A stretch of DNA of 49,477 nt from a virus: positions 1 to 49,477 of IMG/VR virus record IMGVR_UViG_3300013947_000375; one strand, given 5' to 3'. Below, in pieces: positions 24,670 to 49,477 of the stretch (position 1 is its first letter; every line of letters begins with the position of its first letter). A program made the position numbers and the translations under genes. The notes under the pieces are model-generated. The model saw only the letters and a list, made by a program, of their open reading frames with translations, was not told the DNA's origin and made no database searches.

Positions 24670-25371
24670 ATGAATATCATCGAGAAGGAGTACAATTGGG
24701 CGCACGAACTGTCCACCCGTCAGGTTACCAACCTGATCATTCTGCACCACGCAGCGGCCAAGTCCTGCACGGCATCGGATGTTCACAACTGGCACCTTAA
24801 CCGGGGCTGGGCTGGAATCGGCTACCACTTCTTTGTAGGCAAGGATGGTTCTGTTGTTCGTGGCCGTCCGCTCTGGGCAGTTGGCGCGCACGCCGAAAGC
24901 TGCAACTGGCGCTCTGTTGGTATTTGCTTTGAGGGTGACTATCAGACTGAGCAGGATATGCCCGCTGCGCAGCTGAAGGCGGGTCAGGAACTGGTACAGT
25001 ACCTCAAGAATAAGCTGGGGGTTAACCAGGTGGTAGGCCATCGTGATGTGGCTGTGGCTGGAACCAGCTGCCCCGGACAGTATTTTCCGTTTGAAGCGAT
25101 CTGCACGGCAATCACAGACAACAATACTAATACCGAGGAGGACATTATCATGGTAGCAACTCAGATGATCAGCAACGGCGACAGCGGCAACGCGGTGCGC
25201 AGTATGCAGGGTGCGCTCATCGCGCAGGGCTACAAGTGCGGCAGCTATGGCGCGGACGGAATCTGCGGCGCGGCGACCGTCGCGGCCATCCGCGCTTGTC
25301 AGGCGGCGAACGGTCTGACGGTTGATAGCATCTGCGGCCCTGATACGTGGGGTGTACTTCTGAAACCCTGA
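24670..25371 (+). CDS. endolysin: N-acetylmuramoyl-L-alanine amidase (Amidase_2/PGRP fold) with C-terminal PG_binding_1 domain
   Basis: ILHHAA, GIGYHFFV, GAHA, VVGHRDV...TSCPG motifs; C-terminal GDSGNAVRSMQGALIAQGY...DGICGAAT...ANGL pattern. Confidence 0.85.
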   Translation: MNIIEKEYNWAHELSTRQVTNLIILHHAAAKSCTASDVHNWHLNRGWAGIGYHFFVGKDGSVVRGRPLWAVGAHAESCNWRSVGICFEGDYQTEQDMPAAQLKAGQELVQYLKNKLGVNQVVGHRDVAVAGTSCPGQYFPFEAICTAITDNNTNTEEDIIMVATQMISNGDSGNAVRSMQGALIAQGYKCGSYGADGICGAATVAAIRACQAANGLTVDSICGPDTWGVLLKP

Positions 25372-28403: not shown

Positions 28404-28432
28404 ACTATAAGAGATTTCTAGATACTTGTAAA
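28404..28432 (-). promoter_or_regulatory. early promoter
   Basis: minus strand TTTACA, N17, TATAGT. Confidence 0.7.
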
Positions 28433-28440
28433 TGGGTAAA

Positions 28441-29316: not shown

Positions 29317-29345
29317 AATATATCACACTCTCAGGAGTTTGTAAA
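29317..29345 (-). promoter_or_regulatory. early promoter
   Basis: minus strand TTTACA, N17, TGA-TATATT (extended -10). Confidence 0.65.
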
Positions 29346-29353
29346 TGGGTAAA

Positions 29354-30901: not shown

Positions 30902-31469
30902 CCTCAGTTTCCTCCTCAGGAACCTCAGCAACAGAGGACTTCAGGGAAGTAATGGCCACAGCTACCTTAGCCTTGGGGAAACTATTGATAGTGGAGATTA
31001 GCTTCTCCCGGTTGGACTTGGGGTGGGCAGTTCCCCCCAGCTCAGAAATGATCTTAATAAGCTGTTTCTTGGTTAGATCATCCAGAGGGCCTTTCTCCTG
31101 GGCCTCAGCTTTTTCGACAGCAGCAGTAGCTTTGTCCTTATCCTTAGACTTCTTCCGCTTCTTCTTAGGCTTCTCCTCAAGAGAAGTAGAGGTAGCTCCC
31201 AGTTCGATGAGGAACATGTTGGAGTAGTTTGCCAGATCGGTTAGAGTGTCCACCAGAGACTCCCCATTGGAATCATCCAGACCAGCTCGAACCAGGGCCT
31301 TTACTCGGTTGAGCTTATCCTCCAGTCGAATAATTGCCACTGTGGGACCATACTCCGAAAAGGTCTTACCGAAGGCATCATCATATTTTTCATTCTTTTC
31401 CGAGTACAGAGCTTCCTGCTGAGAATGCAGAGTCTTTAGAATTTGGAGCTTTTCCTTGGTGCTAGCCAT
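30885..31469 (-). CDS. DUF1599-like (nucleotide-modification-associated helical domain) protein with K-rich linker and HeH-like C-terminus
   Basis: EKNEKYDDAFGKTF...IRLEDKLNRVKAL...ESLVDTLTDLANYSNMFLIEL fits the DUF1599 KN.DYG / DK..R / DL.NY pattern (from memory). Confidence 0.45.
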   Translation of the reverse strand: MASTKEKLQILKTLHSQQEALYSEKNEKYDDAFGKTFSEYGPTVAIIRLEDKLNRVKALVRAGLDDSNGESLVDTLTDLANYSNMFLIELGATSTSLEEKPKKKRKKSKDKDKATAAVEKAEAQEKGPLDDLTKKQLIKIISELGGTAHPKSNREKLISTINSFPKAKVAVAITSLKSSVAEVPEEETEDGEEE

Positions 31470-34633: not shown

Positions 34634-37081
34634 TTATTTATTCAAGGAGTTTAAATAGTCTTGAATTTCCTGTTTCCAGGTATCATCTCCAGGATCCATA
34701 TGAAGCTCCTTACCTGCTCCCCAGGATTGTCCTATGGCTACATCCGCCACAATAGGAACATCGCTTTCGAAATGAAAAACTTCCTCTAGGGCTTTAGGGT
34801 GTTCTAGGATGTGTTTTGCCCTAGGGCAGAACTCCATTAAGTAGTCATTCCTTACCTCAAACAGGGTAGCATCATGAACAGTTCCTATAACGAAAAACTT
34901 ATCTTTGTCTAGCTTATAAGCTGGGTCATAGTACTGGGCATTTCCCATTATCTCGGACATTCCTAAGATGGTTAGGTCTGAGCCAAATCCCTGGACCGGT
35001 GAATTTATACTCTGTCTTTCAGCTTCAGCCTTCTTGGACTTGTCTGTGGAGTATATATCGGGAAGTCTCCGTATTCTCCCTATGGGACTCCTTACTTGGC
35101 CTATGGACTGGACTATTCTTCTTTGCTTAGAGTGCCATTTAGGTAGAGAATGGTAGGTTTCAAAAAACTTTCCCCGCCATTGCTCAGCTTCTTTATCGGT
35201 AAGATCTACCCCATAGTTATCTCGAGCGTATATCTTGAACTTTCTCCAGCCCATCCCATAGACGAATCCAAAGTTAACAGCCTTGGCCTTCTTTCTCTGT
35301 TCCTTTCGAATGTACTTATCATCCGAGACCTTCTCCCCAGTTATCATCTCAAAGGTGTGGGTGTGAATATCCCCGCCCGTTTGATAGATCCTCTTCATGG
35401 TCTCATCCCCAGACATTATGGCGGCTATTCTAAGTTCAGCTTGGGAATAGTCTATCTCTACCACAGACCAGCCTTCAGGGGCTCCTACTAGATTTCGGAT
35501 AATGGGATCCCGGGGAACTTGTTGAAGATTGGGATCAGTACAGGAGGTTCTCCCTGTTACAGTTCCATGGAGTTTAAAATTAGGAAATAGTCTTCTACCC
35601 CACATACGGTTGATCCACCCATCTATAAAATGAGAGATCTGTATATTCACCCCACGATACTTAAGGATAAGTTCCACTATGGGATGTTTATCCCTTAATT
35701 GCATTAAGGTAGCCTCACTTGTAGAGGGGGCTCCTGATTCGGTTCTCTCCAAAATAGGAAGTTTTAGTTCCCCATAGAGTAGCTTTTGGATCTGGGCCGG
35801 AGAGTTCCAATTGACCTCGTGTCCAGCTAGCTTAATGAGCTGTTTCTCTATTTTGGACTTCTCAGACTCCAGATGCTTTCTTACCTGTTTGAACTGTTGT
35901 GGATAGATAAACACCCCATGTTCTTCTACGGTCTCATAGGATATAATTCCCGGCATATAAAGGTGGTAGAAGAGTTTCATAAGGGCTCTATCTTGCTTTA
36001 ATTTCTTATGGAATACTTTATAGAGCTTATACTCATAGTAGACATCGTATCCCAAATAGGTAAGATACTCTTGATACTTCCCCCGGGTCTGGTATTGCCC
36101 CGTTTTCAGGGACTTATCGACATCCCACTCGGGGGCATTACATTCCAGAGCTGCATTCTCCTTAACACCATTGGGGGTATTCTCGTTGAGAATATGGGAG
36201 GCGAGCACTACGTCGAATGTAATATGGGGTTTAGTCCCAAAATGGTATTGAAGGAATAGATCATCAAACTTTCCATTACCAGCCACAAGAGCTTTAGCGT
36301 TAGTATTTAGCCACTTTATGCAGGCCCTTATAATTTTCCTTTGGGCCAGTCTTGCGCCCTTCAGCGGGCTGTAATTGGCCTCTAAGGGAATGATATATTG
36401 AACCTTATCATTTCCAAACCCAAATAGGTTGATCTCGTCCTCAAACCTAACTAGTCCTGTGGTCTCTATATCATAGCTCAGGTATAGATAGTCATTCTTA
36501 ATTAGGTGTTGAAAGGCCCTTCTCAGTTGTCTCATATTGGTGATAAGTCTAACATCCAGTTCTGGAAGTCCCTCTAGCTCTCCCTCTATCATAGCTTTGA
36601 AATTATTCATAGCCTTATCCACAAAGGGGGCCTTTCCCGGGTCTCGATAAACTACTCCCGGACTATAGGAGGGCATATACTTAATTCCACCCTTCTCAAC
36701 CATAATTCCATTGAGCTCCGTAATAGAGCCATCCACAGTTGCTTTAAGGGCCTGAGCCCCTAGAAGTAGAACAAACTGGGGTTTTACCTGAGCTATCTCT
36801 TGATCAAGATGAACTTTACATTTCTTAATATCCCCCACCTTGAACTTGGTACCCCTAGGGCAGGCACACTTGATAGCATTGGTGTAGTAAATCTTCTCAG
36901 GGTCTATTCCTATCTCCCGAAGTCTTTCTATGAGAGAGGACGGCATCACTGCCGCCCCCATCTCTTCATCATGCTCAGTAGCATAACTGTTTATGACCAT
37001 AACTTTAGCCTCGGGACTCCCAGAGCCCCAGATGCAAGAGGGATCTGAGAAGGAACAAAGGTTACAGTTATTACAGGTCAT
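34634..37081 (-). CDS. family A DNA polymerase (3'-5' exo + pol) with N-terminal UDG family-4-like domain
   Basis: exo motif YLSYDIETTGL; pol motifs DYSQAELRIAA, KAVNFGFVYGMG, VHDATLFEV; N-terminus CNNCNLC...WGSGSPEAKVMVI...NAIKCACP resembles family-4 UDG. Confidence 0.9.
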   Translation of the reverse strand: MTCNNCNLCSFSDPSCIWGSGSPEAKVMVINSYATEHDEEMGAAVMPSSLIERLREIGIDPEKIYYTNAIKCACPRGTKFKVGDIKKCKVHLDQEIAQVKPQFVLLLGAQALKATVDGSITELNGIMVEKGGIKYMPSYSPGVVYRDPGKAPFVDKAMNNFKAMIEGELEGLPELDVRLITNMRQLRRAFQHLIKNDYLYLSYDIETTGLVRFEDEINLFGFGNDKVQYIIPLEANYSPLKGARLAQRKIIRACIKWLNTNAKALVAGNGKFDDLFLQYHFGTKPHITFDVVLASHILNENTPNGVKENAALECNAPEWDVDKSLKTGQYQTRGKYQEYLTYLGYDVYYEYKLYKVFHKKLKQDRALMKLFYHLYMPGIISYETVEEHGVFIYPQQFKQVRKHLESEKSKIEKQLIKLAGHEVNWNSPAQIQKLLYGELKLPILERTESGAPSTSEATLMQLRDKHPIVELILKYRGVNIQISHFIDGWINRMWGRRLFPNFKLHGTVTGRTSCTDPNLQQVPRDPIIRNLVGAPEGWSVVEIDYSQAELRIAAIMSGDETMKRIYQTGGDIHTHTFEMITGEKVSDDKYIRKEQRKKAKAVNFGFVYGMGWRKFKIYARDNYGVDLTDKEAEQWRGKFFETYHSLPKWHSKQRRIVQSIGQVRSPIGRIRRLPDIYSTDKSKKAEAERQSINSPVQGFGSDLTILGMSEIMGNAQYYDPAYKLDKDKFFVIGTVHDATLFEVRNDYLMEFCPRAKHILEHPKALEEVFHFESDVPIVADVAIGQSWGAGKELHMDPGDDTWKQEIQDYLNSLNK

Positions 37082-37809
37082 TAGAATACTCCCTCCACGT
37101 CCTTATTGTATACATGCAGGGAGAAGATAGTGTGGGTAAAACTCCCCACAGGGTAGCCGGTTTTCTCAGCCACCCACTCCAGAAATCGAATGGCCAGGTA
37201 GACATCATTTCGAAAATGGGTAGCGAAGTCACAGGATCTCATTACATAGTGCAGATTGAGCTTCCCATCACGAACCTGAAGGCCATACCCCAGGGAACAG
37301 GGAACTCGAGAAATACCCCCCAAGAAGTTAGGATCTCTGGTGGGACTCCAAAGACTAATCCACAGTTGGCGAGAGTCAGGATCTTCCTTTAGACGATTGA
37401 TGATCTTAGTTACCTGGTCATTATTCCAGATGAGCTCGTTGTAGGTATAGGCCATTTTACCTTCGTGTAGATATTCGGTCCATACCTCTTTGCGTAGCTC
37501 CCAGGCCTTTCCAGGATTAAGAAAATGGGGGGAAAGGTAGTTAGCCTGACCATCAGAAGTACGGTTCCAAGGGTCAGTTACCCTCTCCTTGAACTCAGCA
37601 TCGGCCCAAGGCTGAGTAACCCCAGGAATGTCCTGGCTCTTGGCGTCGAGCAGACAGTAAGAATAATTCTGGAGCTCCCTAGTCTCGTAGTCAGGATTTC
37701 CTTTGACATACTTGTCCTGCATAGTGGCAGGTCTTACCACAATGCCCATCTCAGCAAGGTCCCGTTTGGTCTCCTCGATCATTTCCTCAGCATTAATGTA
37801 GATTCTCAT
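37081..37809 (-). CDS. thymidylate synthase (ThyA)-fold pyrimidine C5 transferase; candidate dCMP/dUMP hydroxymethylase or methylase
   Basis: RVPCSLGYGLQVRDGKLNLHYVMRSCDFATHFRNDVYL...SLHVY parallels the ThyA PCH...QRSCD...PFN...DxHxY core. Confidence 0.7.
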   Translation of the reverse strand: MRIYINAEEMIEETKRDLAEMGIVVRPATMQDKYVKGNPDYETRELQNYSYCLLDAKSQDIPGVTQPWADAEFKERVTDPWNRTSDGQANYLSPHFLNPGKAWELRKEVWTEYLHEGKMAYTYNELIWNNDQVTKIINRLKEDPDSRQLWISLWSPTRDPNFLGGISRVPCSLGYGLQVRDGKLNLHYVMRSCDFATHFRNDVYLAIRFLEWVAEKTGYPVGSFTHTIFSLHVYNKDVEGVF

Positions 37810-38569: not shown

Positions 38570-39226
38570 TTAGTAATTACTTCTCTGGCGGAACATGTTA
38601 ACCTGAGACTTCTTCAGGTATACCTTAGCTATGCCTTCGGCATCCATACCAGAGACTACCAGAATAGTAATATAACAAGCCCAGGCATTAGTCAGTCTAT
38701 GATAAAAAGCTTCTCTATCAGTCTTCATCATAGACTGCTTCCAGGGCTTATTCTTCAGGCAGTTGCACATCATAGCCAGCTGTTCGATGAAACTAGAGAC
38801 CCAGTAATTCAAGTTATGATTACGGTCCTCAATTAGATTTCGGGAATTCTCCACCAAGTCCTCCAAGTGGTCCTCACTATAAAGAAGGGGGATACCCGAG
38901 GGAATAATGGTATCGTAGTTCTTACCAGCCAGAATAGTCAGCTCAGTCAGAAAATGAAGACCATCAATAAGCTCCTCTTGATAATGGTCTGAGTTAGTTC
39001 TAGCATCAAGGGCCTCCCCAAGCTCCTCAGTAACCCTCCAGGAAAAGTCCTTGATACGGGCTTGCCCCCTCTTATCATCCAGATTCACCGGGCAGTCTTC
39101 GGTCTGAAGTAGTCCAGACTTTAGTTCAATGTCATGGTACTTACCCATTAGGGATCTCTGTCGGTCAAAAATAGCCTTAAGCAGATCACCCTCAACCTTC
39201 TCCTCTACGGCATGGTTAATATTCAT
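38570..39226 (-). CDS. all-alpha NTP pyrophosphohydrolase (dimeric dUTPase/dCTPase-like, MazG superfamily)
   Basis: LKAIFDRQRSLMGKY..., TEELGEALDA, ELIDGLHFLTEL pattern typical of dimeric dUTPases. Confidence 0.5.
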   Translation of the reverse strand: MNINHAVEEKVEGDLLKAIFDRQRSLMGKYHDIELKSGLLQTEDCPVNLDDKRGQARIKDFSWRVTEELGEALDARTNSDHYQEELIDGLHFLTELTILAGKNYDTIIPSGIPLLYSEDHLEDLVENSRNLIEDRNHNLNYWVSSFIEQLAMMCNCLKNKPWKQSMMKTDREAFYHRLTNAWACYITILVVSGMDAEGIAKVYLKKSQVNMFRQRSNY

Positions 39227-39744: not shown

Positions 39745-41709
39745 TTAGCGTTTGGGAATGGTGTAACCCTTATTCATGGGAACTATTCTCTTGGATTTTA
39801 GCAGGTTGTCTAAAACCTTACGAGTAGTTTCGAAATTGGAACCTAAACCCTCCTTTATGGCTCTTTTAGTAACTGGGACATTAGAGGTTCTTAGCATATC
39901 CACAACCTCGTCCTCTAGAGTTTTAATGGTAACATGAGGTTCTCCTGCTGCTCCCACAGTAACTCTATATCTGGGATTTCCAATTTCCCCCATTTCGAAA
40001 TGAATGTCTAGTTCCGGGTAATTACCCGCCATTCGAAACTCCCTGCTAAGAGTTATGGTGGAGGATCCTGAGGACTCAGCTAGATCTACTTCTCTATTTG
40101 GGGGGGTTTCTTCATCTTCGTCGGATTTGGTAAGATACCAAGCAGACTCTACCCAGCCATATAGCATCACAGAACCAGCCATTCTAGCTCCTCCCCGAAG
40201 AACCTGTTGATTGCTACCTTTGTTATAGTGATGAATAACCATAACACTAGTCTTATACTGGGTCTTAAGACTAAGCAGCCAGTTAAGTACGGGATTCAAC
40301 TCTTTCGAAGAATTAAGATCTCCATCGAACATTAGGTATAGGGGGTCGAAAACCACAAGTACAGGCTTAATCTCTTTAATGAGGGACTCAATCTGTCTCC
40401 TGTGGTCCTCATTACTGAGGGTAAATCCCTGTTGGTTTAAAAAGGTAATAGGGAGATCAGGGGGAAATTCTACATGTAATTTTTTGGAGGATATTCTTTC
40501 CACTTCTCCTACTAGCCCTCTATCTAAAATGACCTTTTCTGTTCGATCCTTCATAATGTAGTCAGCATTCTCATTCTGAACTACTATCACTGGACCGGGG
40601 TCTAAAACTTGAAACCTACCCAAAAAGGGCTGACCACTAGCTACAGAGATTATTAAATCATGAACTAGGGTGGACTTAAAACATTTTGGCATTCCGGCCA
40701 CTATTCCATGAGACCTTCGTCCCCAAAATCCCTTGACCAACCAGCCCTCAAAGGTATTGCAATTTCCCATAACCTCTTCATAGTTAGAGGTTTTCATGAG
40801 TCCTATTTCTTCCTGTCCCGGATCAGGTATCTCCCCCGAGATAATCTTCTCCAGCTCTTTTTGAATTCGGGAGTCTTCATCCCTTCTACCTTTGTACTTG
40901 TTAAAGACACTGTTCTTGATTAGATATATAATCTCTTGAGGGGTCATTCCTAGCTCATGTAAGGAGTTCTCTACAAACCAAATAGTTCCAGATCGATCTA
41001 CCCCATTTAGAGACTCTAGGGCTAGAAGGTCTCTTACCTTTTTAGGGATGGAGTACTTAGCATAGATCTTTCTCTCCATTATTGTGGCCTCTTTAGAGGC
41101 CTCTGAGGGGTTGCTGGGGACTTTTTCTGGGGGAGGGGTAGTAACTATACCCCCCACAGCTTTACGGAGATTCTTGGGCTTATAAATGACCTTAGTGGCC
41201 TTTGGCATTCCTACTCTGGGGGAGTTTCGGTATTTGTGATTAATAGTTCCGGGAATTCGATAGACATGGGCAAAATCGAAACAGTCATCACACCCTATAT
41301 GGGTGGCTAGGGCCTTATTAAGGGGGGTATATTCCTTTTCATCGATGTATCGATCCAACTCCCACAGACCTTGATACTTGTTGGGAGAACTTTCCCAGAT
41401 ATAACTAGGTTTAGGGTCCAAAGTGGAGGGATCTTCACACTCATCTATATCTTGGGCCATAAACTTAGTATCAACGGAGTAGGAATTTTGTCTCTTAGGA
41501 TGACTAAAGGGCATAGGAGACCAATAGAGGTCATATTCCCCAGGGGGATAGGATTCAAAAAACCCCCTAAGCTTCTTTCTAAGGTCCTTACCAAATCGAA
41601 GGGGGACATCCCTCCAAAACTTCCCGTTTCTGGCGGCCAAGATAATGTAGTCCCCTGGCTCACACTGTTGAGAGAAGATGTGATTTAGAAATTTGATGGT
41701 TTCTCTCAT
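39745..41709 (-). CDS. primase-helicase (N-terminal primase/polymerase-like domain, C-terminal RepA/AAA_25 RecA-fold helicase, wHTH tail)
   Basis: GMPKCFKSTLVHDLIISVASGQPFLG Walker A region; VVFDPL Walker B; N-terminal DIDECED...YQGLWEL. Confidence 0.7.
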   Translation of the reverse strand: MRETIKFLNHIFSQQCEPGDYIILAARNGKFWRDVPLRFGKDLRKKLRGFFESYPPGEYDLYWSPMPFSHPKRQNSYSVDTKFMAQDIDECEDPSTLDPKPSYIWESSPNKYQGLWELDRYIDEKEYTPLNKALATHIGCDDCFDFAHVYRIPGTINHKYRNSPRVGMPKATKVIYKPKNLRKAVGGIVTTPPPEKVPSNPSEASKEATIMERKIYAKYSIPKKVRDLLALESLNGVDRSGTIWFVENSLHELGMTPQEIIYLIKNSVFNKYKGRRDEDSRIQKELEKIISGEIPDPGQEEIGLMKTSNYEEVMGNCNTFEGWLVKGFWGRRSHGIVAGMPKCFKSTLVHDLIISVASGQPFLGRFQVLDPGPVIVVQNENADYIMKDRTEKVILDRGLVGEVERISSKKLHVEFPPDLPITFLNQQGFTLSNEDHRRQIESLIKEIKPVLVVFDPLYLMFDGDLNSSKELNPVLNWLLSLKTQYKTSVMVIHHYNKGSNQQVLRGGARMAGSVMLYGWVESAWYLTKSDEDEETPPNREVDLAESSGSSTITLSREFRMAGNYPELDIHFEMGEIGNPRYRVTVGAAGEPHVTIKTLEDEVVDMLRTSNVPVTKRAIKEGLGSNFETTRKVLDNLLKSKRIVPMNKGYTIPKR

Positions 41710-41730
41710 AGACTACTTCTCCTTTGATAA

Positions 41731-41766
41731 AAAGAGGGGAGGATGAACTTTAGGTTCACCCCCCCC
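41731..41766 (-). terminator. imperfect hairpin + T-tract after 41794-42360 (possible leaky terminator)
   Basis: TGAAC (41744-41748) / GTTCA (41754-41758) core extended by G/C runs; no promoter seen before the primase gene. Confidence 0.35.
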
Positions 41767-41793
41767 ATTAGTATCTTGACCAAAGGAGTGGGA

Positions 41794-42360
41794 TTACTCC
41801 TTATCGTCCGCCTCCAGGGCCTTGACCATATCAGCCTTGGCCATTCCCTTGGTGACCTTGATGCCTCTGGTACGACACTCCTTCTTCAGATCCTTGAGAG
41901 CCCAGTCAGAGTAGTCCTCAGAGTCCTCATCGTCCTCATTGGATTCCTCCTCGAAATCCCCATCCTCATCATCTTCAGAGTCCTCATCGTCCTCGGGCTC
42001 AGCCTTCTTCTTAGACTTCTTAGAGGTCTTTTCCTTCTTAGACTTCTTAGGGGGCTTCTCCTCTTCCTCCTCCGGCTCCTTCGAATCATCGGAATCCTCC
42101 ATCATGGAGATCTCATTCTCATAAGCTCCCTTGATCTTATTCAGCGCCTCAGTCATGAGATCAGCAGCAGCTCTCAGAGACTCATCCACAGAAAGCGGGG
42201 CCTCTTCACCCGGCTGGCGGGAAATAAGCTCATCTGTGATTTTCAGAGCCTTATTGGTGGCCTTCTCATCCACCTCATCATCAGACAGGGTCTCCTTCAG
42301 CAGGGCCAGCAGATCAGGGGTCTCAGCCTCCAGAAACTTGGGCTTCTTGTTCTTAGCCAT
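41794..42360 (-). CDS. highly acidic protein with C-terminal HeH/SAP-like motif
   Basis: D/E/K low-complexity centre; C-terminal LKDLKKECRTRGIKVTKGMAKADMVKALE. Confidence 0.7.
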   Translation of the reverse strand: MAKNKKPKFLEAETPDLLALLKETLSDDEVDEKATNKALKITDELISRQPGEEAPLSVDESLRAAADLMTEALNKIKGAYENEISMMEDSDDSKEPEEEEEKPPKKSKKEKTSKKSKKKAEPEDDEDSEDDEDGDFEEESNEDDEDSEDYSDWALKDLKKECRTRGIKVTKGMAKADMVKALEADDKE

Positions 42361-42416
42361 TTTAATAATTCCTCCTTATTTTATTGTTGAATGGGTAGTT
42401 CCCTTGGAATGTTTAT

Positions 42417-42445
42417 ATAATACCATAAGAAAATATGGTTGTAAA
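42417..42445 (-). promoter_or_regulatory. early promoter
   Basis: minus strand TTTACA, N17, TATTAT. Confidence 0.6.
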
Positions 42446-42464
42446 TGAGCTAAACTCTTGAAAT

Positions 42465-43133
42465 CTATTCAGCTCTCTTGATATCCTCAAAAAATGCAGG
42501 ATAGTACATAACCAGGAGATCATAAACTTCTCCGGCCACCTCTACCATTTGGGGGTGTGGGGTACCGGCTACCCCTACCCATCTCATCTCCAAGAAATGT
42601 CTCCATTCTCTAACATTCATGGTAGCTACAATCTCGGTTTTAGTACTATTGGGTAGTACTGAACGAGCCTCCTCAGGGGTAGCCCCCAACTCGAGCATTT
42701 TCATATAGTGTCTTTCGGCATCACACATTGCACTCATCCACTCATTATATTTAGCCGTATCTTTTGGGTCATTTAGGTCATAATGAAACCCACTAGCCAA
42801 GTCAATGACTGTAATTTCACTTCCAAACTTTCCCTTGGAATAATTACAGTAACGAGTACTTTCCTGACAATATGAGGCCAGTCTATGTCGTACTAACTCA
42901 TGGGTTATTCCACGATCACAGACAATGCGGAGAGAAATATAGGCATGTTCTAGTACAGACCAATGTTTTCGTTTCATGAGCCTTTGGATAAATTTCTCTG
43001 TAGTATCTCCCTCTACCCTCTCTGACCGATAACAAGTTCTCCCTGCAGCCTCTACTAGAGAGTAAAGAGACTTTGGAGGAGGAAGGGGTTGATTAGGAAC
43101 AGCCGATACTACATAAGGGGTAATAATTTTCAT
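42465..43133 (-). CDS. thyX: FAD-dependent thymidylate synthase ThyX
   Basis: ThyX signature RHRLASYCQES (RHR..S....S) and 222-aa size. Confidence 0.9.
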   Translation of the reverse strand: MKIITPYVVSAVPNQPLPPPKSLYSLVEAAGRTCYRSERVEGDTTEKFIQRLMKRKHWSVLEHAYISLRIVCDRGITHELVRHRLASYCQESTRYCNYSKGKFGSEITVIDLASGFHYDLNDPKDTAKYNEWMSAMCDAERHYMKMLELGATPEEARSVLPNSTKTEIVATMNVREWRHFLEMRWVGVAGTPHPQMVEVAGEVYDLLVMYYPAFFEDIKRAE

Positions 43134-43681
43134 GTGTTTTCCTCCTGATAGTTAATATCAATTATAATATTCTTGCGAGAAGCAAGATAATCACAAATAT
43201 GAACGAAAGCTTGTAGAGTAGTCTTAGGCTGTGGAAGTTTTCCAAATTGATCCCACTTACCCATATGAGACTCAATTAAGGGAATTATCTCCTTAATAAT
43301 GTAGTAATAATCATCCATCAAAGGATCTAGAATGGCCTTAACCTCTATGGGGTGTAATTTACTGGGCTTGGCTATATCATGTAAAGCTAGGGCTGCCATG
43401 ACCAAGTCTTCTTCCTTTTCCGAAAGGTTATCAGTTTGAAATAGGGCTTTAGCCACTATCATAGCTGCCTTAGTATGTCTTACCAAACCCCCCACCCCAA
43501 GAGCATACCCCGGATGATACTTTCCCGAACTACTGGCGGGTTGAATAAAAAAGTCTATAGGAACACAAGACCTATAGGCTGATTCCACAAACTCAACATA
43601 ATCAGGACTGTGGAAAAATGATTCGAATGACATTAGGTTTATGGTCTGTTCGATTAGTTTGGTGTCTAAGGGTTCTATCAT
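43130..43681 (-). CDS. HD-domain phosphohydrolase
   Basis: SSSGKYHP...GGLVRHT...ALALHDIAKP (H...HD pattern). Confidence 0.6.
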   Translation of the reverse strand: MIEPLDTKLIEQTINLMSFESFFHSPDYVEFVESAYRSCVPIDFFIQPASSSGKYHPGYALGVGGLVRHTKAAMIVAKALFQTDNLSEKEEDLVMAALALHDIAKPSKLHPIEVKAILDPLMDDYYYIIKEIIPLIESHMGKWDQFGKLPQPKTTLQAFVHICDYLASRKNIIIDINYQEENT

Positions 43682-44042
43682 AGTTTTTCTCCTTTCTTAG
43701 TTTTAAAAGCTGTTGAGCCTTATTCATAATTTCCAAATTGCGAATGGGAAGATTAAAACCCGTACTACCATCAAAGCCTTGAAACTCCTCATCATAATCT
43801 ACTCGAGAAGATATGGCTGGATATTTCCTTTGAAGTTCTACTAGTTCTTTGGCCCATGTACTCCAGGTGGTGTCTAAAATCAGATTCTCATTAAACACAT
43901 AATAGATGCAGGAATGGACCAGGATTTGTAACCTCCTTCTAAGGATTAAGGCCCTAATGCTATCAGTCTCTACTCCAGCTTGAGTAAGGTAATATGTACC
44001 CCGAATGAGACTTGGGCTTATTTGAGTTTTAGATTTTCCCAT
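43602..44042 (-). CDS. hypothetical protein (146 aa)
   Basis: ORF with SD and own promoter; the 3' end overlaps the HD gene by 80 nt; the segment CIYYVFNENLILDTTWSTWAKELVELQRKYP loosely resembles the LigA Ia-domain pattern. Confidence 0.6.
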   Translation of the reverse strand: MGKSKTQISPSLIRGTYYLTQAGVETDSIRALILRRRLQILVHSCIYYVFNENLILDTTWSTWAKELVELQRKYPAISSRVDYDEEFQGFDGSTGFNLPIRNLEIMNKAQQLLKLRKEKNYDRTLRHQTNRTDHKPNVIRIIFPQS

Positions 44043-44063
44043 AGTCTTTCCCCCTTAATAATC

Positions 44064-44092
44064 ATTATATCTCAAGACTTGGTCTTTGTCCA
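44064..44092 (-). promoter_or_regulatory. early promoter
   Basis: minus strand TGGACA, N17, TATAAT. Confidence 0.6.
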
Positions 44093-44095
44093 TAT

Positions 44096-44127
44096 AAAAA
44101 CTCTAGAAGGGCCCGAAGGCCCCCTAG
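44096..44127 (-). terminator. intrinsic terminator after the SpoIIID-like gene
   Basis: CTAGAAGGGCC-CGAA-GGCCCCCTAG hairpin; T-run on the minus strand. Confidence 0.7.
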
Positions 44128-44129
44128 AA

Positions 44130-44354
44130 TTAGGTCCCCCCCCATCTTCGAGAGTTACCTTTAAGTATAGACTTAACCTGAGAAAATAGACTGGGACTTA
44201 AATCCTTAAGTCTATAGGTAAGATGCCACCAGACTGTAGCCTGAGGAATATTAAACTCATGAGCCACAGTGTAGGTCGAAGCCTTAGGAATCGATATCAA
44301 GGCCTGGGCCTCTTTCAGAACCTGTTCATCAGTATAAAGATATCTCTTGTTCAT
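44130..44354 (-). CDS. SpoIIID-like HTH transcriptional regulator
   Basis: TVAHEFNIPQATVWWHLTYRLKDLSPSLFSQVKSILKGNSRRWGG parallels B. subtilis SpoIIID IAKEFGVSKSTVHKDLTERLPEINPDLANEVKEILDYHKSIRHLRGG. Confidence 0.7.
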   Translation of the reverse strand: MNKRYLYTDEQVLKEAQALISIPKASTYTVAHEFNIPQATVWWHLTYRLKDLSPSLFSQVKSILKGNSRRWGGT

Positions 44355-44368
44355 TAGTGGTTCCTCCT

Positions 44369-45034
44369 TTAAGCAGTAATGGCCTTTTGATCGGCCCCCA
44401 GGTTTTTACCATCCAGGTAGCCCTTGGTATAGAGCCCCATGTCCCCAGAGCGATTAAGCTTCTTTCCAGTATTGGCTCTTTTCTTGGGGTCAGTAATATC
44501 CTTAGTCAATTGTTCTACTAAGGCATCCTTAACCAATACCAGGCCCCAGTTATTCCTATCTACCTGCTCCTTATACTTAGCCCTCAGGCCAGCGATGAAA
44601 CCAGCTGAATAGTCTCCAGAAATTCCATCAGTAGAAAGACCCTGCTTTCTATACTGTCTTCTGAGCTTCTTCATGTTCTTATCCAGAGTCTGGGCAGCGA
44701 AGGTGAAAACAGCCTTGCAGATGGCCACATCATCCTTGAGTCCCACAAAGACCAGGCCATAAGAGGGAGCCCTGAGAAGATTGCAGCGGAAGTTGTCACA
44801 AATGACCTTAGCCAGCATAATAGCCCAGTTGGTGTTGTGATACCCCTTTACATAGGTTTTAATGGCCTCCTTCTTCTCCTGGGGTCCTTCCTTGAACTGG
44901 GCTAGGTCCAAGTTATGCTCAGCCATCAACTTCTGAGCTTTAAGCATAGCCGCCTGGGCCTCAGCTTCTGAAGGGTTATTGCCAGCCAAGGCCAGCAGCT
45001 TCTCAACCTTGGAAATAATGTTCTTGTCAGTCAT
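44369..45034 (-). CDS. DUF2786-family protein
   Basis: N-terminal IISKVEKLLALAGNNPSEAEAQAAMLKAQKLMAEHNL is the typical DUF2786 signature. Confidence 0.65.
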   Translation of the reverse strand: MTDKNIISKVEKLLALAGNNPSEAEAQAAMLKAQKLMAEHNLDLAQFKEGPQEKKEAIKTYVKGYHNTNWAIMLAKVICDNFRCNLLRAPSYGLVFVGLKDDVAICKAVFTFAAQTLDKNMKKLRRQYRKQGLSTDGISGDYSAGFIAGLRAKYKEQVDRNNWGLVLVKDALVEQLTKDITDPKKRANTGKKLNRSGDMGLYTKGYLDGKNLGADQKAITA

Positions 45035-45082
45035 TAATGGTTCCTCCTGTTGGTAGAGTGTTGGTTAATTAATTACATTATC

Positions 45083-45111
45083 ATTATAAGAGAAACGTCG
45101 AAATTTGTAAA
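45083..45111 (-). promoter_or_regulatory. early promoter
   Basis: minus strand TTTACA, N17, TATAAT. Confidence 0.75.
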
Positions 45112-45132
45112 TGGGTTAGTCGAAAGTTTTTC

Positions 45133-45165
45133 AAAAAAAATGAGGCCCCCTTTAGGAGGCCCCAC
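45133..45165 (-). terminator. intrinsic terminator after the ARH gene
   Basis: GC-rich hairpin 45142-45164 followed on the minus strand by T8 (45133-45140). Confidence 0.65.
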
Positions 45166-45169
45166 TCTC

Positions 45170-45708
45170 TTAGTTTTTCATGAGCCAGTCAGCCATAACA
45201 TTTAGATCCATAACTACCTTAGGATCCAAAGTGTAGATCCACTTCTTGGGGATCAAGTCAGCCCCAAAGCGAGCTCCTGCAATTCCTCCAGCCAGAGCGG
45301 CTATAGTATCTGCATCCCCCCCATGATTTACAGGTCCCAGAATAGCCCCACTGAAACTCCGGGTATGATGAGCCCAGTAGATAGCATTATTCACAGAATT
45401 TCTTACATGGCCCGTAGGGTCCTTAGGACCACCCTTAAGCCACTCCACAAACCCGGTACAGCAATTGGAGAGAAAATTCTCTTTGCCCTTCATACGGGCT
45501 TTGGCCACAATGGTCATCATCTGGGTATCATCAGTTACTTCTCCCGGATTCAGGAAAAGCCACCCACCCCCAGAATATCAGTAACTTCTCCATATCGGGA
45601 CTGAATTTGGTCCTGGGTCATGAATTCTGTGGTTGCCCCCATGGCATCCCCAATAGCGAAGCCCAATAGGGAACCAAGGATACGATTGCGATTCTTAGTA
45701 TTTGTCAT
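45170..45708 (-). pseudogene. compact ADP-ribosylglycohydrolase (DraG/ARH family) interrupted by a frameshift at a G5 run
   Basis: frame A (45708-45550): MTNTKNRNRILGSLLGFAIGDAMGATTEF...; frame B (open from 45577): GGGWLFLNPGEVTDDTQMM...GGDADTIAALAGGIAGARFG; the frames overlap at 45550-45577 around the C5/G5 run 45567-45571. Confidence 0.75.
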
Positions 45709-45824
45709 CTTTTATTCCCCCCATCCAGATAGTCCACTACTTTCATGATTCCCCCAGTTAATGCAGCTGCTCCTGCCAGGATTACCAGGTAATAAAGTAC
45801 CTCTCTAGCTTGTTCGATAAACAT
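45705..45824 (-). CDS. small membrane protein (39 aa), ATGA-coupled to the ARH gene
   Basis: translated by hand: MFIEQAREVLYYLVILAGAAALTGGIMKVVDYLDGGNKR; GAGGAGGA SD. Confidence 0.5.
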   Translation of the reverse strand: MFIEQAREVLYYLVILAGAAALTGGIMKVVDYLDGGNKR

Positions 45825-45855
45825 TGTCGGATTCCTCCTCTTTTAGTATAATCTC

Positions 45856-45884
45856 ATTATAAGAGATAATGGCCAGTTTGTAAA
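45856..45884 (-). promoter_or_regulatory. early promoter
   Basis: minus strand TTTACA, N17, TATAAT. Confidence 0.75.
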
Positions 45885-45912
45885 TGGGGAGAAGGGGACT
45901 TAGCCCCTCCCC

Positions 45913-46809
45913 TTATCCCATCTTAGAGACAGCTCTCACGAAGTCGTTGATAGAGCCCTTCAGAGTAGTCTTGATAAAGTGATTTTCCTGAGCCTGGATA
46001 GTATCCTTCTTCAGGGGCTTGTGAGTAACGAAATCAGTATAGGCATTAACCAGTCCCCACTGGGTGCCGATGAAGTTCTGATTATCCTCAGCCTGATATG
46101 CAGCCAGGAATCTGTCCCTCTTCTCTTCCATTCTCCGAACCTGAGTAGGGTTAAACTCCTCTTTGATTTCGAAGATATCATCCAGCAGATGGTCTACCTG
46201 GGACTTAGAGACCTTCTTCTGAGCCAGCAGAATAGCCTCTTTCTGGAACTCAGAAATGTAGTCACTACTATGAATAAGAACCTCCTGAGCCGTATGAAGC
46301 TTACCCTTGATGGATTTGGTATGGCGAAGACTAATCTTGTTTGCCACCTTCCGGAAGGTCAGATTGAACTGATTCTCACAGACAATTCGGAGAGGAGCGA
46401 TAGTAGCTTTAAGAGTAGTATTGCCACTGTGAGAGTTCTGGAAGATGACATGAGGGGCTACCTTATCTCCCATCAGGTCAAACTCCGGAAGCTGGGCGAT
46501 GATGTAGATGAATTTGTGGTTCTCACCAGCCTTCAGGAACTTCAGGCCTTCAGGGATCATGGAGTTGATGAAGTCAAAACCCTCGATGTTCTGAACTATT
46601 TCGAACTGAGAACCAACTACTCCATAGGTCCAGTCAGAATTCTCCCTCTTGGTGCAGAAGGTACCAGGAATGGGGGTTCCATTCTCCAGGAAAACAGGAA
46701 CCTTCTCCACAGTGTAGTCGAGGTGAGAGAGTTTCAGGGCCTCCTCCACAGTGGTGGCCTTGGTGATGTTAGCTCCGATGTTGGTCCAAGTAGCAGTACG
46801 AGTAGTCAT
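45913..46809 (-). CDS. DUF932-family (phage/plasmid-like) protein
   Basis: N-terminal W.NIG...TVEEALKLSHLDYTVEKVPV and FEIVQN pattern typical of DUF932. Confidence 0.6.
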   Translation of the reverse strand: MTTRTATWTNIGANITKATTVEEALKLSHLDYTVEKVPVFLENGTPIPGTFCTKRENSDWTYGVVGSQFEIVQNIEGFDFINSMIPEGLKFLKAGENHKFIYIIAQLPEFDLMGDKVAPHVIFQNSHSGNTTLKATIAPLRIVCENQFNLTFRKVANKISLRHTKSIKGKLHTAQEVLIHSSDYISEFQKEAILLAQKKVSKSQVDHLLDDIFEIKEEFNPTQVRRMEEKRDRFLAAYQAEDNQNFIGTQWGLVNAYTDFVTHKPLKKDTIQAQENHFIKTTLKGSINDFVRAVSKMG

Positions 46810-46862
46810 TTTGTATTCCTCCTTAAGATTTTCAGTTGGTAGGTGTTATCCAGTATGGTTAT

Positions 46863-46891
46863 ATTATAAGACCCTCGTACGAGTTTGTAAA
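46863..46891 (-). promoter_or_regulatory. early promoter
   Basis: minus strand TTTACA, N17, TATAAT. Confidence 0.75.
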
Positions 46892-46912
46892 TGGTTTCGA
46901 GAAAAGTTTTTC

Positions 46913-46942
46913 AAAAAAAAGAAGAGGTCTTTCGACCTCCTC
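46913..46942 (-). terminator. intrinsic terminator after 46946-47335
   Basis: GAAGAGGTC (46921-46929) / GACCTCCTC (46934-46942) hairpin, then T8 on the minus strand. Confidence 0.7.
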
Positions 46943-46945
46943 AGA

Positions 46946-47335
46946 TTAGAATGGTGAATTAGAGATTATCTGGCCCTCTAGTATTCTTAGTATGTCCGGA
47001 GCTACCTTCCTTCTATGGGGTAAATCGGTAAGTCTCTTCCTGTGATAAGCCTTGAGCAATCTCTGACCGGGTAGTCTGTCTAAAGCCTCATCCTGTTCGT
47101 CTGTGAGATTTCGAGCTAGGTATAGTCTAGCGGCCCTAACTGTAGGGGTCTTTAATCCAGATAAAACTGCCATCCCCGAGTCCTTGTCAGAGATAACATA
47201 GGGCCACCCAGAGGGATGAGCCTTATGTATAAATAGGGTAGATCTACCCCACTGAAACTCCCCATAGGACCTAACCAGCTTCTTATACTCAATCCCTACC
47301 TCGCAGCATCTAATATAATTGTACTCCTTTTTCAT
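46946..47335 (-). CDS. hypothetical protein (129 aa)
   Basis: ORF with GGGGGTGA SD. Confidence 0.65.
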   Translation of the reverse strand: MKKEYNYIRCCEVGIEYKKLVRSYGEFQWGRSTLFIHKAHPSGWPYVISDKDSGMAVLSGLKTPTVRAARLYLARNLTDEQDEALDRLPGQRLLKAYHRKRLTDLPHRRKVAPDILRILEGQIISNSPF

Positions 47336-47395
47336 GAAGTATTCACCCCCTATTACTTATATTATATCACCAAATCTGGTAAAAAAGTCTAGTTT

Positions 47396-47965
47396 TTAGC
47401 TAGAGTAGGGATTTGGGAGTGACCAGTCCCAAAACTCAGTAGACCCCCATTCTGCTGTAAAATGGTTCCTTTCACCATCCCCAACGAAGTATAAGTACTC
47501 CTTAGGAATAACCCTACCCCCAGAGTATAGACCTACTTTTTCTTGAGTATAGGTAGTTACCACACTATTTACAATATTCACCATTCCTTGATCTACAGGG
47601 GTTGACTGGTAATAAGCCACCGCATTAGGATAGGTAACCACATCCTCGATCGTTGATCCCCAGTCCCCCTTGTCCAGGCGATTAAGGATTACCCAAACTA
47701 CTGCAGCTTGTTCCATTTCACTCTTCACCCCTCGAGCCTCAGCATACAGAACCTTGGCCATCATCTCTACTTCCTCATTAGTAAAGAGAACCGGAAGTTC
47801 TGGAGAAGTCTTTTCTTCAGGTTGATCCTCTACTATAGCCAGAGGCTCAGGCTCAGACTCAGACTCGGTGCTAATAGGACTATAGGCTCCGGTGGTAACT
47901 AGCACAAGTCCAAACAACCAAATCCAAAGAGCCAAAAATAAAGGTAAGTTAAATCTGTCTTTCAT
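47396..47965 (-). CDS. SleB/CwlJ-family cell wall hydrolase (Hydrolase_2) with N-terminal membrane anchor or signal
   Basis: MAKVLYAEARGVKSEMEQAAVVWVILNRLD matches the SleB-family core; N-terminal hydrophobic LPLFLALWIWLFGLVLV. Confidence 0.7.
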   Translation of the reverse strand: MKDRFNLPLFLALWIWLFGLVLVTTGAYSPISTESESEPEPLAIVEDQPEEKTSPELPVLFTNEEVEMMAKVLYAEARGVKSEMEQAAVVWVILNRLDKGDWGSTIEDVVTYPNAVAYYQSTPVDQGMVNIVNSVVTTYTQEKVGLYSGGRVIPKEYLYFVGDGERNHFTAEWGSTEFWDWSLPNPYSS

Positions 47966-48284
47966 CTTGCATTCTCCTTTTAGATATGTTCATAAGTTGC
48001 CTCCAATATTTAGGCATTTTATTTCTACAAATGGCCAATTCTCGTTCTGTGAGTTCTCCCCCATATTTAAGTCGAAGAGCCAGAGCAGTCATCATCTCAG
48101 CATCTACAGCCCCAAAGCCAACCCCATTATGATCAATTGTGGCCCCATAGGCTTTCTCCTCTGGGGTTTGTAAGTCGGCTATAAGGGTGATTGCCCTATA
48201 GAGAGCTTTCTTGTTGGTTCGAAGTAGATTCTGGAGATATTCTTTCCATTGGTTCTGATTTGTAAATTGTTCCCATGGCCTCAT
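47949..48284 (-). CDS. hypothetical protein (111 aa)
   Basis: ORF, ATGA-coupled to the upstream gene. Confidence 0.65.
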   Translation of the reverse strand: MRPWEQFTNQNQWKEYLQNLLRTNKKALYRAITLIADLQTPEEKAYGATIDHNGVGFGAVDAEMMTALALRLKYGGELTERELAICRNKMPKYWRQLMNISKRRMQDERQI

Positions 48285-49300
48285 TCACCATCATCTCCTG
48301 ACTGCCACTCTTCCCCTGTAACCTCTTTCCAGATTTTAGGACCAAGACCGGTCTCAATCTCATCACCATTCGATCGAATAGTCTGAACTATCTCATAGGG
48401 ACTATTTACCACGATCTCTTGACCAAATTCCTGGGAGTAAATCTCTACTAGGCCTTTACTCATTTTGATGTGGTGTCTTCCTATGTACTGAATAAGATCG
48501 AGACCCTCTATGGGAAGGGGTTCTTTCTTCCTTTTTCTAGAGGGCCTTTTTGGGAAATCCTCACTCGTTTTAAGAAGTGTTCCTATCTGAGAAGAGGGTT
48601 CCATTCCAAACTTACGATATAGAGATCTAACTTCTCTACTAGTGACTAAGGGAAACTTCTTTACTAAGTCCTTTAAGCCGTTAACCAGTCCTATCTCCCT
48701 ATGGTAGAAAATGGCTCCCTGTACTTTCCCATTTGGGCTATAGTGTTTACCAGCTGCCTCAAAGTCCTCTAGGTCAAAATCTGTATATTCCCCACTGATT
48801 TCTACAGGGGTATACTTATTCTGATTGTTCCACGAGTAAGCTTGCCCAATAGTATAGGTATTAATTTCCCCGAAAAGGTATAAAGCCAGTCCCGCCACAT
48901 CCGCAGTTACTACATTCCCGAAGCGATAGTAATATACCCCAGAATTTTTTTGATTGGTCTTTAAACCCTTCCTCTTAGATTTTTTCATTGGGGGGGTATA
49001 TTTACCCACTATTTCAAAATCTGGAGTTATTCTCAAAGAGTTATGAGGATCATAAGCCATCTGAAATTTTCCCTCTTTGAATTGAATATAAGCTCTTCCC
49101 CTCTGCTGTATAGCTCTAAAGAGATACTCATCCCAATTAGAGGACAGCCCAGGCCCTGAGAGAAGGTCCCTTTTAACTCTCCTCATTTGAAAGTCCCAGG
49201 GGTTTTCTTTACCTTCTCGAACCTCAAAGACATTACCTTCCCCAAGATCCAAAAGCTCCCACATAATTTGGTTTTTATTATATGGTATCCATTCCTTCAA
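48281..49300 (-). CDS. hypothetical protein (339 aa), first gene of the leftward early arm
   Basis: TTG start after AAAGGAG; no recognisable motif. Confidence 0.65.
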   Translation of the reverse strand: MKEWIPYNKNQIMWELLDLGEGNVFEVREGKENPWDFQMRRVKRDLLSGPGLSSNWDEYLFRAIQQRGRAYIQFKEGKFQMAYDPHNSLRITPDFEIVGKYTPPMKKSKRKGLKTNQKNSGVYYYRFGNVVTADVAGLALYLFGEINTYTIGQAYSWNNQNKYTPVEISGEYTDFDLEDFEAAGKHYSPNGKVQGAIFYHREIGLVNGLKDLVKKFPLVTSREVRSLYRKFGMEPSSQIGTLLKTSEDFPKRPSRKRKKEPLPIEGLDLIQYIGRHHIKMSKGLVEIYSQEFGQEIVVNSPYEIVQTIRSNGDEIETGLGPKIWKEVTGEEWQSGDDGE

Positions 49301-49335
49301 GAATTTCTCACTCCTTTCCTTATTAAATTAGTTAT

Positions 49336-49364
49336 ACTATATCACTATGCACTTATAATGTAAA
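49336..49364 (-). promoter_or_regulatory. first leftward early promoter
   Basis: minus strand TTTACA (49359-49364), N17, TGA-TATAGT (49336-49341). Confidence 0.65.
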
Positions 49365-49410
49365 TAGTTTTACTCTTGTATCAAGAAAATAGGTCCTTAT
49401 TAATATAATA

Positions 49411-49477
49411 GGTGAGGAGTTAGTCTAAACCTCACTAATATAATAGGTGAGGAGTTAGTCTAAACCTCACTAATATA
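49411..49477. repeat. 67-nt exact copy of nt 1-67 (direct terminal repeat or circular-assembly overlap)
   Basis: compared base by base; joining the ends without overlap would break the 35-bp period by 3 nt, whereas overlapping them is exact. Confidence 0.9.

Follow-up and report, generated by a model that had tools for sequence, protein, structure and literature searches.

The chromosomal SpoIIID proteins of C. difficile and B. subtilis are 64% identical (PMC3789822), and the basic C-terminal region helps SpoIIID to bind DNA (PMC3789822, PMC11180830). The annotation of SpoIIID in phages dates from Clostridium phage phi3626 (record NC_003524), where the gene is ORF42, and gp43 of vB_CpeS-CP51, a protein of Bacillus phage vB_BceM-HSE3 and the family PHROG 11726 have been annotated likewise. 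These phage proteins are 44-51% identical to B. subtilis SpoIIID and keep both VSKST and the full basic tail. With B. subtilis SpoIIID as the query, phage homologues were found only in Clostridium, Bacillus and Lysinibacillus phages or in faecal viromes. To our knowledge, such copies have been catalogued, but none with a tested function. A survey of gut phages of spore-formers found spoIIID (K06283), truncated spo0A and sleB/cwlJ to be enriched, and stressed that the function of phage sporulation-type genes is untested (Schwartz et al. 2023, PMC10294663). Here we describe a 74-aa protein that is one more divergent member of this known kind. It is encoded in a 49,477-nucleotide stretch of viral DNA, referred to below as the window.

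A small gene of the SpoIIID family

The gene runs from ATG to TAA at positions 44130-44354 on the minus strand and encodes the sequence MNKRYLYTDEQVLKEAQALISIPKASTYTVAHEFNIPQATVWWHLTYRLKDLSPSLFSQVKSILKGNSRRWGGT, which bears out the helix-turn-helix (HTH) ORF that an earlier note had proposed there. A Shine-Dalgarno sequence, GGAGG, can be read at 44363-44367 on the same strand, 8 nt 5' of the ATG and 1 nt past the stop codon of the preceding gene. Against relatives, dN/dS was 0.07-0.40 in the 6 of 15 pairs that gave an estimable dS, which was at or near saturation in these pairs. With a ribosome-binding site and homologues that carry the mark of purifying selection, the ORF is by these signs a real gene under such selection. 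The identical protein was found on seven metagenomic contigs, the longest of 49,494 bp. AlphaFold2 (pLDDT 85) predicts helices at residues 9-21, 27-34, 38-52 and 54-72.

SpoIIID was the sole Pfam family matched by the protein (PF12116, 27.0 bits, E 4.9e-6; residues 9-67 to profile positions 5-62 of 82), its only NCBIfam match and its top PHROG match (11726, 'sporulation stage III protein D', E 1.5e-5, 26.1 bits; residues 11-68 to 14-70 of 89). The best sequence match in the PDB was 2L0K (E 2.4e-4; residues 7-65 to 4-61), and a Foldseek search with the AlphaFold model also brought up this SpoIIID-DNA structure at the top (TM 0.75, rmsd 2.2, 66 columns), followed by a match at TM 0.49. The model has the SpoIIID fold, an HTH with a helical extension, although only the first part of that extension is present. 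When 1.84 billion representative proteins were searched exhaustively with phmmer, 30 matches were returned at E<=1e-3, mostly proteins of 66-94 aa, many of which end in ...KGGGR; P0031, a protein with the canonical SpoIIID C-terminal tail, was matched at 3.9e-4. Several of the matches were longer proteins (P0007, P0015, P0020, P0023, P0029 and P0030, of 208-413 aa) built from 3-6 tandem SpoIIID-like domains each.

Could the resemblance be due to chance, or to a likeness that any HTH protein would show, so that the family call is wrong? The Pfam score, borderline for a single sequence, stands exactly at the gathering cut-off of 27, a precomputed annotation flags the SpoIIID match as 'weak', the Foldseek E-value was 0.078 and just 30 matches came out of so large a protein set. 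Such an explanation is nevertheless very improbable, as no generic HTH family or other Pfam family was matched even at E<=10, and 2L0K came first by sequence and by fold with a clear gap to the next structure. Among 23 members of the clade to which the protein belongs, 18 matched PF12116, the best at 5e-10, and a few gave weak generic HTH matches (1e-4 to 7e-3). When the clade profile was compared by hhalign with a profile of 25 chromosomal-type SpoIIIDs, the probability was 99.1% (E 1.4e-18, 61 columns). Intermediates also bridge the clades: one is a protein of Clostridium phage CB452P1, which scored 70 bits on the chromosomal profile against 33 for the 74-aa protein, and the second is P0031. 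The 74-aa protein is thus assigned, from sequence and model, to the SpoIIID family as a small protein with a predicted four-helix HTH fold. The comparison with PF12116 that the earlier note had proposed came out in its favour, the only Pfam match being specific to SpoIIID.

Divergence from chromosomal SpoIIID

Chromosomal SpoIIID (B. subtilis P15281-type, PDB 2L0K; C. difficile CD0126) has the same Pfam family and fold as the phage protein and can be aligned with it through helices 1-4, residues 7-68. The two have in common T40, L-T-x-R-L, P-x-L...V..IL and a basic-GG motif. The pattern quoted for them earlier was inexact, as the phage protein has ATV in place of STV and HLT in place of DLT, and its IL stands 2-3 residues closer to R..GG than in SpoIIID. 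Identity to the chromosomal SpoIIIDs averaged about 31%, with a best value of 41.7% to P0031. By comparison, the 25 aligned chromosomal-type sequences, which come from Bacilli and many Clostridia and include P0031 as an outlier, averaged 55% among themselves, and the mean between the phage group and the chromosomal group was 26%. The protein failed the TIGR02844 equivalog with 24.7 bits against a cut-off of 111.5.

The recognition helix of the protein reads PQATVWWH (IPQATVWWH), where SpoIIID has SKSTVHKD ([IV]SKST[VI]H.D). SKST[VIL]H is kept in 24 of the 25 chromosomal-type sequences, all 24 with D two residues on, the exception being P0031 with SKSTVF. The short phage clade as a whole has PQ[SA]TVW[WHY]H, against SKST[VI]H.D in the chromosomal proteins of Bacilli and Clostridia. 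The DNA-reading surface therefore probably differs from that of host SpoIIID. At the C-terminus, all alignments to SpoIIID end at ...ILKGN. The phage protein closes with ...ILKGNSRRWGGT and stops at RRWGGT (SRRWGGT), a short basic-GG remnant, where SpoIIID continues ...RGGEATKLKYKKD; the basic C-terminal helix ERHxRGGxATKxKY (NKAERHxRGGxATKxKY) is reduced to that remnant. The basic tail of SpoIIID went unmatched in PF12116 (profile positions 63-82), in TIGR02844 and in hhalign. The earlier note had carried the SpoIIID match through both the HTH and this tail; it holds through the HTH and the following helix (PF12116, 2L0K), while no HMM matched the tail. By the same note, generic HTH families as best hits with no SpoIIID-specific match at the C-terminus would speak against its reading; the best matches are SpoIIID-specific, and the C-terminal match is absent.

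In a neighbour-joining tree of the SpoIIID family (82 columns, without bootstrap values), a comparison that had also been proposed earlier, the chromosomal SpoIIIDs formed one tight clade and the short phage clade, with the 74-aa protein, lay outside it; CB452P1 and P0026 were placed between the two. Because of the equivalog miss, the identity of about 31%, the altered recognition helix and the cut-down C-terminal helix, the protein is, as far as sequence comparison tells, a divergent, C-terminally shortened relative of SpoIIID and not a captured host spoIIID.

The chromosomal genes themselves held a separate observation. In uncultured gut Clostridia MAGs (L090, L093, L097 and L099-L102), spoIIID is interrupted right after ...SKS and before TVHKD. 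Upstream of its 3' half, and in the same frame, stands the C-terminal portion of a large conserved protein, YLKSIISNKKNFMKAVEKEF...EVRLKLLNEIG, which we take to resemble the end of a large serine recombinase, an arrangement that points to an intervening element of the skin type within spoIIID.

The phage genome and its relatives

The window is a complete phage genome of ~49 kb. It is circular or terminally redundant, since bases 1-77 and 49401-49477 carry the same 35-bp tandem unit and the ends overlap. In the divergent control region at 20-199, CCTCACTAATA occurs in 7 copies; the whole window has 8, where 1.3 would be expected. At the same junction place, relatives have arrays of other motifs, and these co-vary with a 339-aa protein (48281-49300) and with p91 (459-734). 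The plus arm encodes a sigma factor, dCMP deaminase, a Spo0A_C-only protein, the terminase subunits, a MuF-ADP-ribosyltransferase fusion and an amidase endolysin. The minus arm carries DUF932, DUF2786/DUF7168, SpoIIID-like, Nlig-Ia, HD, ThyX, primase-helicase, dUTPase, ThyA-like, UDG-PolA, exonuclease and SNF2 helicase genes. No integrase was found among the 51 ORFs scanned against Pfam, which cover only part of the plus arm.

Another sporulation-type transcription factor in the window, as claimed earlier, was confirmed in the Spo0A_C-only protein at 2902-3483 on the plus strand (193 aa, PF08769, E 2.7e-36), which has no receiver domain and matches the truncated phage spo0A of the survey (PMC10294663). 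Its gene lies behind a TGGACA-18-TATAAT promoter and is accessory, being present in 2 of 8 relatives checked; when viral contigs were scanned for Spo0A_C, a single contig came up, and it is unrelated. The phage sigma factor (823-1371, plus strand; Sigma70_r2 and r4_2, PHROG 351) had a homologue, 46% identical, only in L014 among five relatives checked. A SleB/CwlJ-type hydrolase domain (PF07486 Hydrolase_2, 30.5 bits) is encoded in the early arm at 47396-47965 on the minus strand, separate from the amidase endolysin at 24670-25371.

Several other features of the genome may be recorded. The MuF-ADP-ribosyltransferase fusion belongs to the head module (10955-12607, plus strand), and two minus-strand ORFs of 52 and 116 aa (45550-45708 and 45170-45520) are a split ADP-ribosylglycohydrolase, the gene for which is intact in relative L012 (283 aa); the two functions may be a toxin/antidote pair, or the latter a decaying gene. 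The nucleotide-metabolism set comprises a UDG-domain-PolA fusion, ThyX, a ThyA-like protein, dUTPase_2, dCMP deaminase and a DUF1599 'nucleotide modification associated domain' (ORFs at 30885-31469, 34634-37081, 37081-37809, 38570-39226, 42465-43133 and 1617-2147), and hints at modified DNA bases. A stand-alone Nlig-Ia, the NAD+-binding N-terminal domain of DNA ligase (146 aa, E 4e-28), is encoded at 43602-44042 on the minus strand; its ORF and the start of the HD gene share 80 nt, and the gene caller passed over it on the source contig.

In a profile search, the short clade of ~70-aa SpoIIID-like proteins turned up on metagenomic contigs alone, which were up to 56 kb long. Each of the 14 distinct related contigs that were inspected shares the gene order of the window and has the DUF2786 gene followed by the SpoIIID-like gene, down to a protein identity of 38%. 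Since this pair is present in all of them while the Spo0A_C and sigma genes come and go, being found in just some of the related phages, the SpoIIID-like gene is a core gene of the lineage rather than cargo. Its product is the least conserved and fastest-evolving of the neighbourhood, with 49-54% identity to the three closest relatives against mostly 57-90% for its neighbours. One relative came from a Hadza gut metagenome, and the clade member P0171 already bears the name 'stage III sporulation protein D [Caudoviricetes sp.]' in a public record. Positions 40000-49477 gave no match in a nucleotide search against isolate phages, and a scan of 185,579 species genomes with a narrow pattern found no relatives of the clade and no sign of a prophage copy. 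The closest cultured relatives of the phage are of the Clostridium perfringens CPD4/Clo-PEP-1 type, with PolA 55-56% identical, but CPD4, which has the closest replication module, lacks a SpoIIID-like homologue; for the SpoIIID-like gene, the closest cultured phage is C. butyricum phage CB452P1. The short clade is peculiar to one lineage of ~50-kb gut phages, whose closest cultured relatives infect Clostridium.

A shared transcription unit

The SpoIIID-like gene starts 14 nt past the stop codon of a gene at 44369-45034 on the minus strand, which encodes a 221-aa protein with DUF2786 and DUF7168 (Pfam; phrog_421, function unknown). No PDB relative of that protein and nothing on it in the literature was found, and its single-sequence AlphaFold model was unusable (pLDDT 43). 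The nearest minus-strand promoter-like site lies upstream of this first gene, so the SpoIIID-like gene appears to be without a promoter of its own. The site, at 45083-45111, is of the sigma-A type that we call class A (TTTACA-17-TATAAT, extended CCATTTACAAA); the promoter reads CCATTTACAAA-N-TCTTATAAT (45111-45083), with a terminator-like hairpin 5' of it, and three relatives have the very same -35 and -10 elements. At the other end, a putative intrinsic terminator at 44099-44131 on the minus strand, UUCUAGGGGGCC-UUCG-GGCCCUUCUAGAG followed by UUUUUAU, begins within the stop codon of the SpoIIID-like gene. The fold has -26.9 kcal/mol over an 81-nt stretch (z -2.2). Its GGGCC/GGCCC stem and T-run are kept in L006 and L007, two of three aligned relatives, and in further relatives, whereas L008 has a shorter, different hairpin.

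The two genes are accordingly predicted to have one shared sigma-A-type promoter and one terminator. The earlier note had given the SpoIIID-like gene a promoter/terminator unit to itself; the terminator (44131-44099), kept in relatives, stood up, while the promoter is shared with the DUF2786/DUF7168 gene. That note had also taken the protein for a mother-cell switch of the sigma-E and sigma-K regulons, complete with the two DNA-binding regions of SpoIIID. This reading is not supported, in view of the failed equivalog, the place outside the chromosomal clade, the different helix, the mostly absent C-terminal extension, and a predicted sigma-A-like promoter and co-transcription with another gene. 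As far as sequence prediction goes, the sole promoter-like site of the unit is of sigma-A and not sigma-E type. In sum, the observation was confirmed in part and its interpretation supported in part.

Candidate targets in the phage

Boxes of the kind bound by host SpoIIID were rejected as targets within the phage, as neither KRTAACARK (6 against 6.9 expected) nor RGACAAG (7 against 16.4 expected) is enriched in it. Spo0A boxes (TGTCGAA) numbered 1 against 2.35 expected. The junction iteron-like arrays were also rejected as targets of the SpoIIID-like protein, for their repeat motifs differ among relatives. The array motif tracks the 339-aa protein (63% identity to the same-motif L014, against 40-48% to others) and p91 (90% to L014, against 50%), but not the SpoIIID-like protein, with 52% against 49-54%.

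Two classes of promoter were recognized, both with the look of strong sigma-A promoters. Class A, CCATTTACAA, has 6 exact copies, and 18 with at most one mismatch against 3.8 expected; the CCATTTACAAA-type promoters lie at 351-382, 28404-28435, 29317-29348, 45083-45114, 45856-45887 and 46863-46894. The class B motif, AGAGTT-N5-6-TGGACAA-N17-18-TAnnAT, has 3 matches in the window against 0.05 expected, a chance estimate that is too generous because the motif was defined after inspecting the sequence. All three copies are at intergenic promoter positions and oriented with the downstream genes. One, at 44064-44104 on the minus strand (AGAGTT-N6-TGGACAA-N-TATAAT, with TGGACA-17-TATAAT at 44092-44064), stands directly past the SpoIIID-like gene and heads the Nlig-Ia/HD/ThyX/replication genes; the copy at 2826-2868 precedes the Spo0A_C gene, and that at 4114-4155 the terminase/structural operon. 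The core of TAGGACAAGC, the site of SpoIIID in B. subtilis (PMC11180830), is present within TGGACAAG.

The class B promoter upstream of terS is kept in 8 relatives, and the one directly after the SpoIIID-like gene in 11, all of which have a W[WHY]H helix. Four relatives have other helices, and in these a TTTACA -35 or no promoter follows the SpoIIID-like gene; one of the four has TTTACA at the terS promoter too. This correlation of helix type with promoter type runs parallel to phylogeny, which confounds it, and may reflect nothing but inheritance. The phage sigma factor is an unlikely reader of class B, since a search of 3-5 kb on the upstream side of terS brought up no sigma homologue in the 8 relatives that keep the motif. 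From sequence, we infer that class B promoters are a candidate target of the SpoIIID-like protein.

Possible functions

The protein is most likely a transcription regulator that binds DNA sequence-specifically. Our tentative reading, for which the chances are somewhat short of even, is that it acts on the phage's own promoters. It would be made early, as the second cistron of the unit that runs from the sigma-A-type promoter through DUF2786/DUF7168, 14 nt and the SpoIIID-like gene to the terminator, and would bind phage DNA sequence-specifically. Its preferred target may be the class B promoters (AGAGTT-N6-TGGACAA-N17-TAnnAT), which head three units, the replication/nucleotide-metabolism genes, the Spo0A_C gene and the terminase/structural operon, so that it could act as an early-to-later switch. 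The early timing, the transcription of the unit, the DNA binding, the regulatory role and the target are all conditional in this sense; the ORF, its family, fold, clade and gene order, and the promoter-like site and hairpin terminator with their conservation were shown by the analysis. Among the minus-arm genes behind class A promoters, the SpoIIID-like protein is the only recognizable DNA-binding protein (Pfam; ORFs >=110 aa). Regulation of phage promoters is a weaker proposal, though, in that class B promoters are near-consensus for sigma-A (11 of 12 matches) and need no activator.

Rather less likely, the protein is directed at the host: it may bind mother-cell promoters or compete with host SpoIIID and, together with the phage Spo0A-effector protein, derail the programme that leads from sigma-E to sigma-K, so that spore formation would neither trap nor abort the infection. 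A role in host sporulation is favoured by the occurrence of phage SpoIIID homologues in phages of spore-formers, which all isolate phages with such homologues infect, and by the enrichment there of spoIIID, truncated spo0A and sleB (PMC10294663). That SpoIIID is the sole family matched, that the same genome has a Spo0A_C-only gene and a SleB/CwlJ-like hydrolase, and that the closest cultured relatives infect C. perfringens and C. butyricum point the same way, and rapid evolution would also fit a protein that interacts with the host. Binding to the same boxes as host SpoIIID is doubtful, however, because the recognition helix differs where chromosomal SpoIIIDs are invariant and little is left of the basic DNA-binding extension at the C-terminus; the failure of TIGR02844 also tells against it, as does a SpoIIID-like gene that is core and syntenic while the phage spo0A-like gene is accessory. 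A distinctly unlikely alternative takes the protein out of transcription altogether and makes it a DNA-binding accessory of the DUF2786/DUF7168 protein in a process such as replication start, recombination or counter-defence. The two genes are invariably paired, 14 nt apart and under common signals, they stand just before the replication genes, and DUF2786 homologues are also present in phages of non-spore-formers (Listeria, Streptococcus, Lactococcus). Yet the junction arrays track other proteins, as noted above, and the sole characterized member of the SpoIIID family is a transcription factor.

Comparison with known phage systems

The SpoIIIDs of phi3626, CP51 and HSE3 are, like the present one, products of small SpoIIID-family genes in phages of spore-forming Bacillota or their relatives. 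The 74-aa protein is shorter and more diverged than these, and phi3626 and CP51 have integrase genes, whereas the window phage showed none among the ORFs scanned. The sole isolate-phage match to the 74-aa protein is WBK39635, a hypothetical protein of CB452P1 (90 aa, 37% identity). Both have a YSDE.VL.EA N-terminus and an IP.ST start of the recognition helix, but WBK39635 keeps a full-length tail, IKGGNCTKSRHKY, and its gene stands two genes ahead of that for the small terminase subunit, with no DUF2786 partner. The difference from chromosomal SpoIIID extends to setting, the one gene being phage-borne with a sigma-A-like promoter and the other having a sigma-E promoter.

With its fixed core gene, two-gene unit, altered helix, few candidate promoters and spo0A effector-domain gene, the lineage is a clean case in which to study whether phage 'sporulation genes' manipulate the host or were recruited for phage gene control, a distinction that affects how such matches in virome surveys are read. 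Meijer and colleagues (2005) reportedly found that phi29 uses host Spo0A boxes to silence its own promoters in sporulating cells. Phi29 is an analogy only, that of a virulent phage whose own promoters have sites for a sporulation regulator. As a long shot, the SpoIIID-like protein might be the lineage's core temporal switch and bind the three class B promoters at their -35 regions, which contain GGACAA; as these boxes resemble the site of host SpoIIID, the host protein could recognize the promoters as well in the mother cell. If that were true, phage development would be coupled to the sporulation state, and phi29/Spo0A-like logic would operate on a phage-encoded SpoIIID paralogue. Whereas phi29 makes use of the host protein and has no homologue in its genome, the window phage encodes a SpoIIID-like protein of its own, for which the sites in its genome are candidates.
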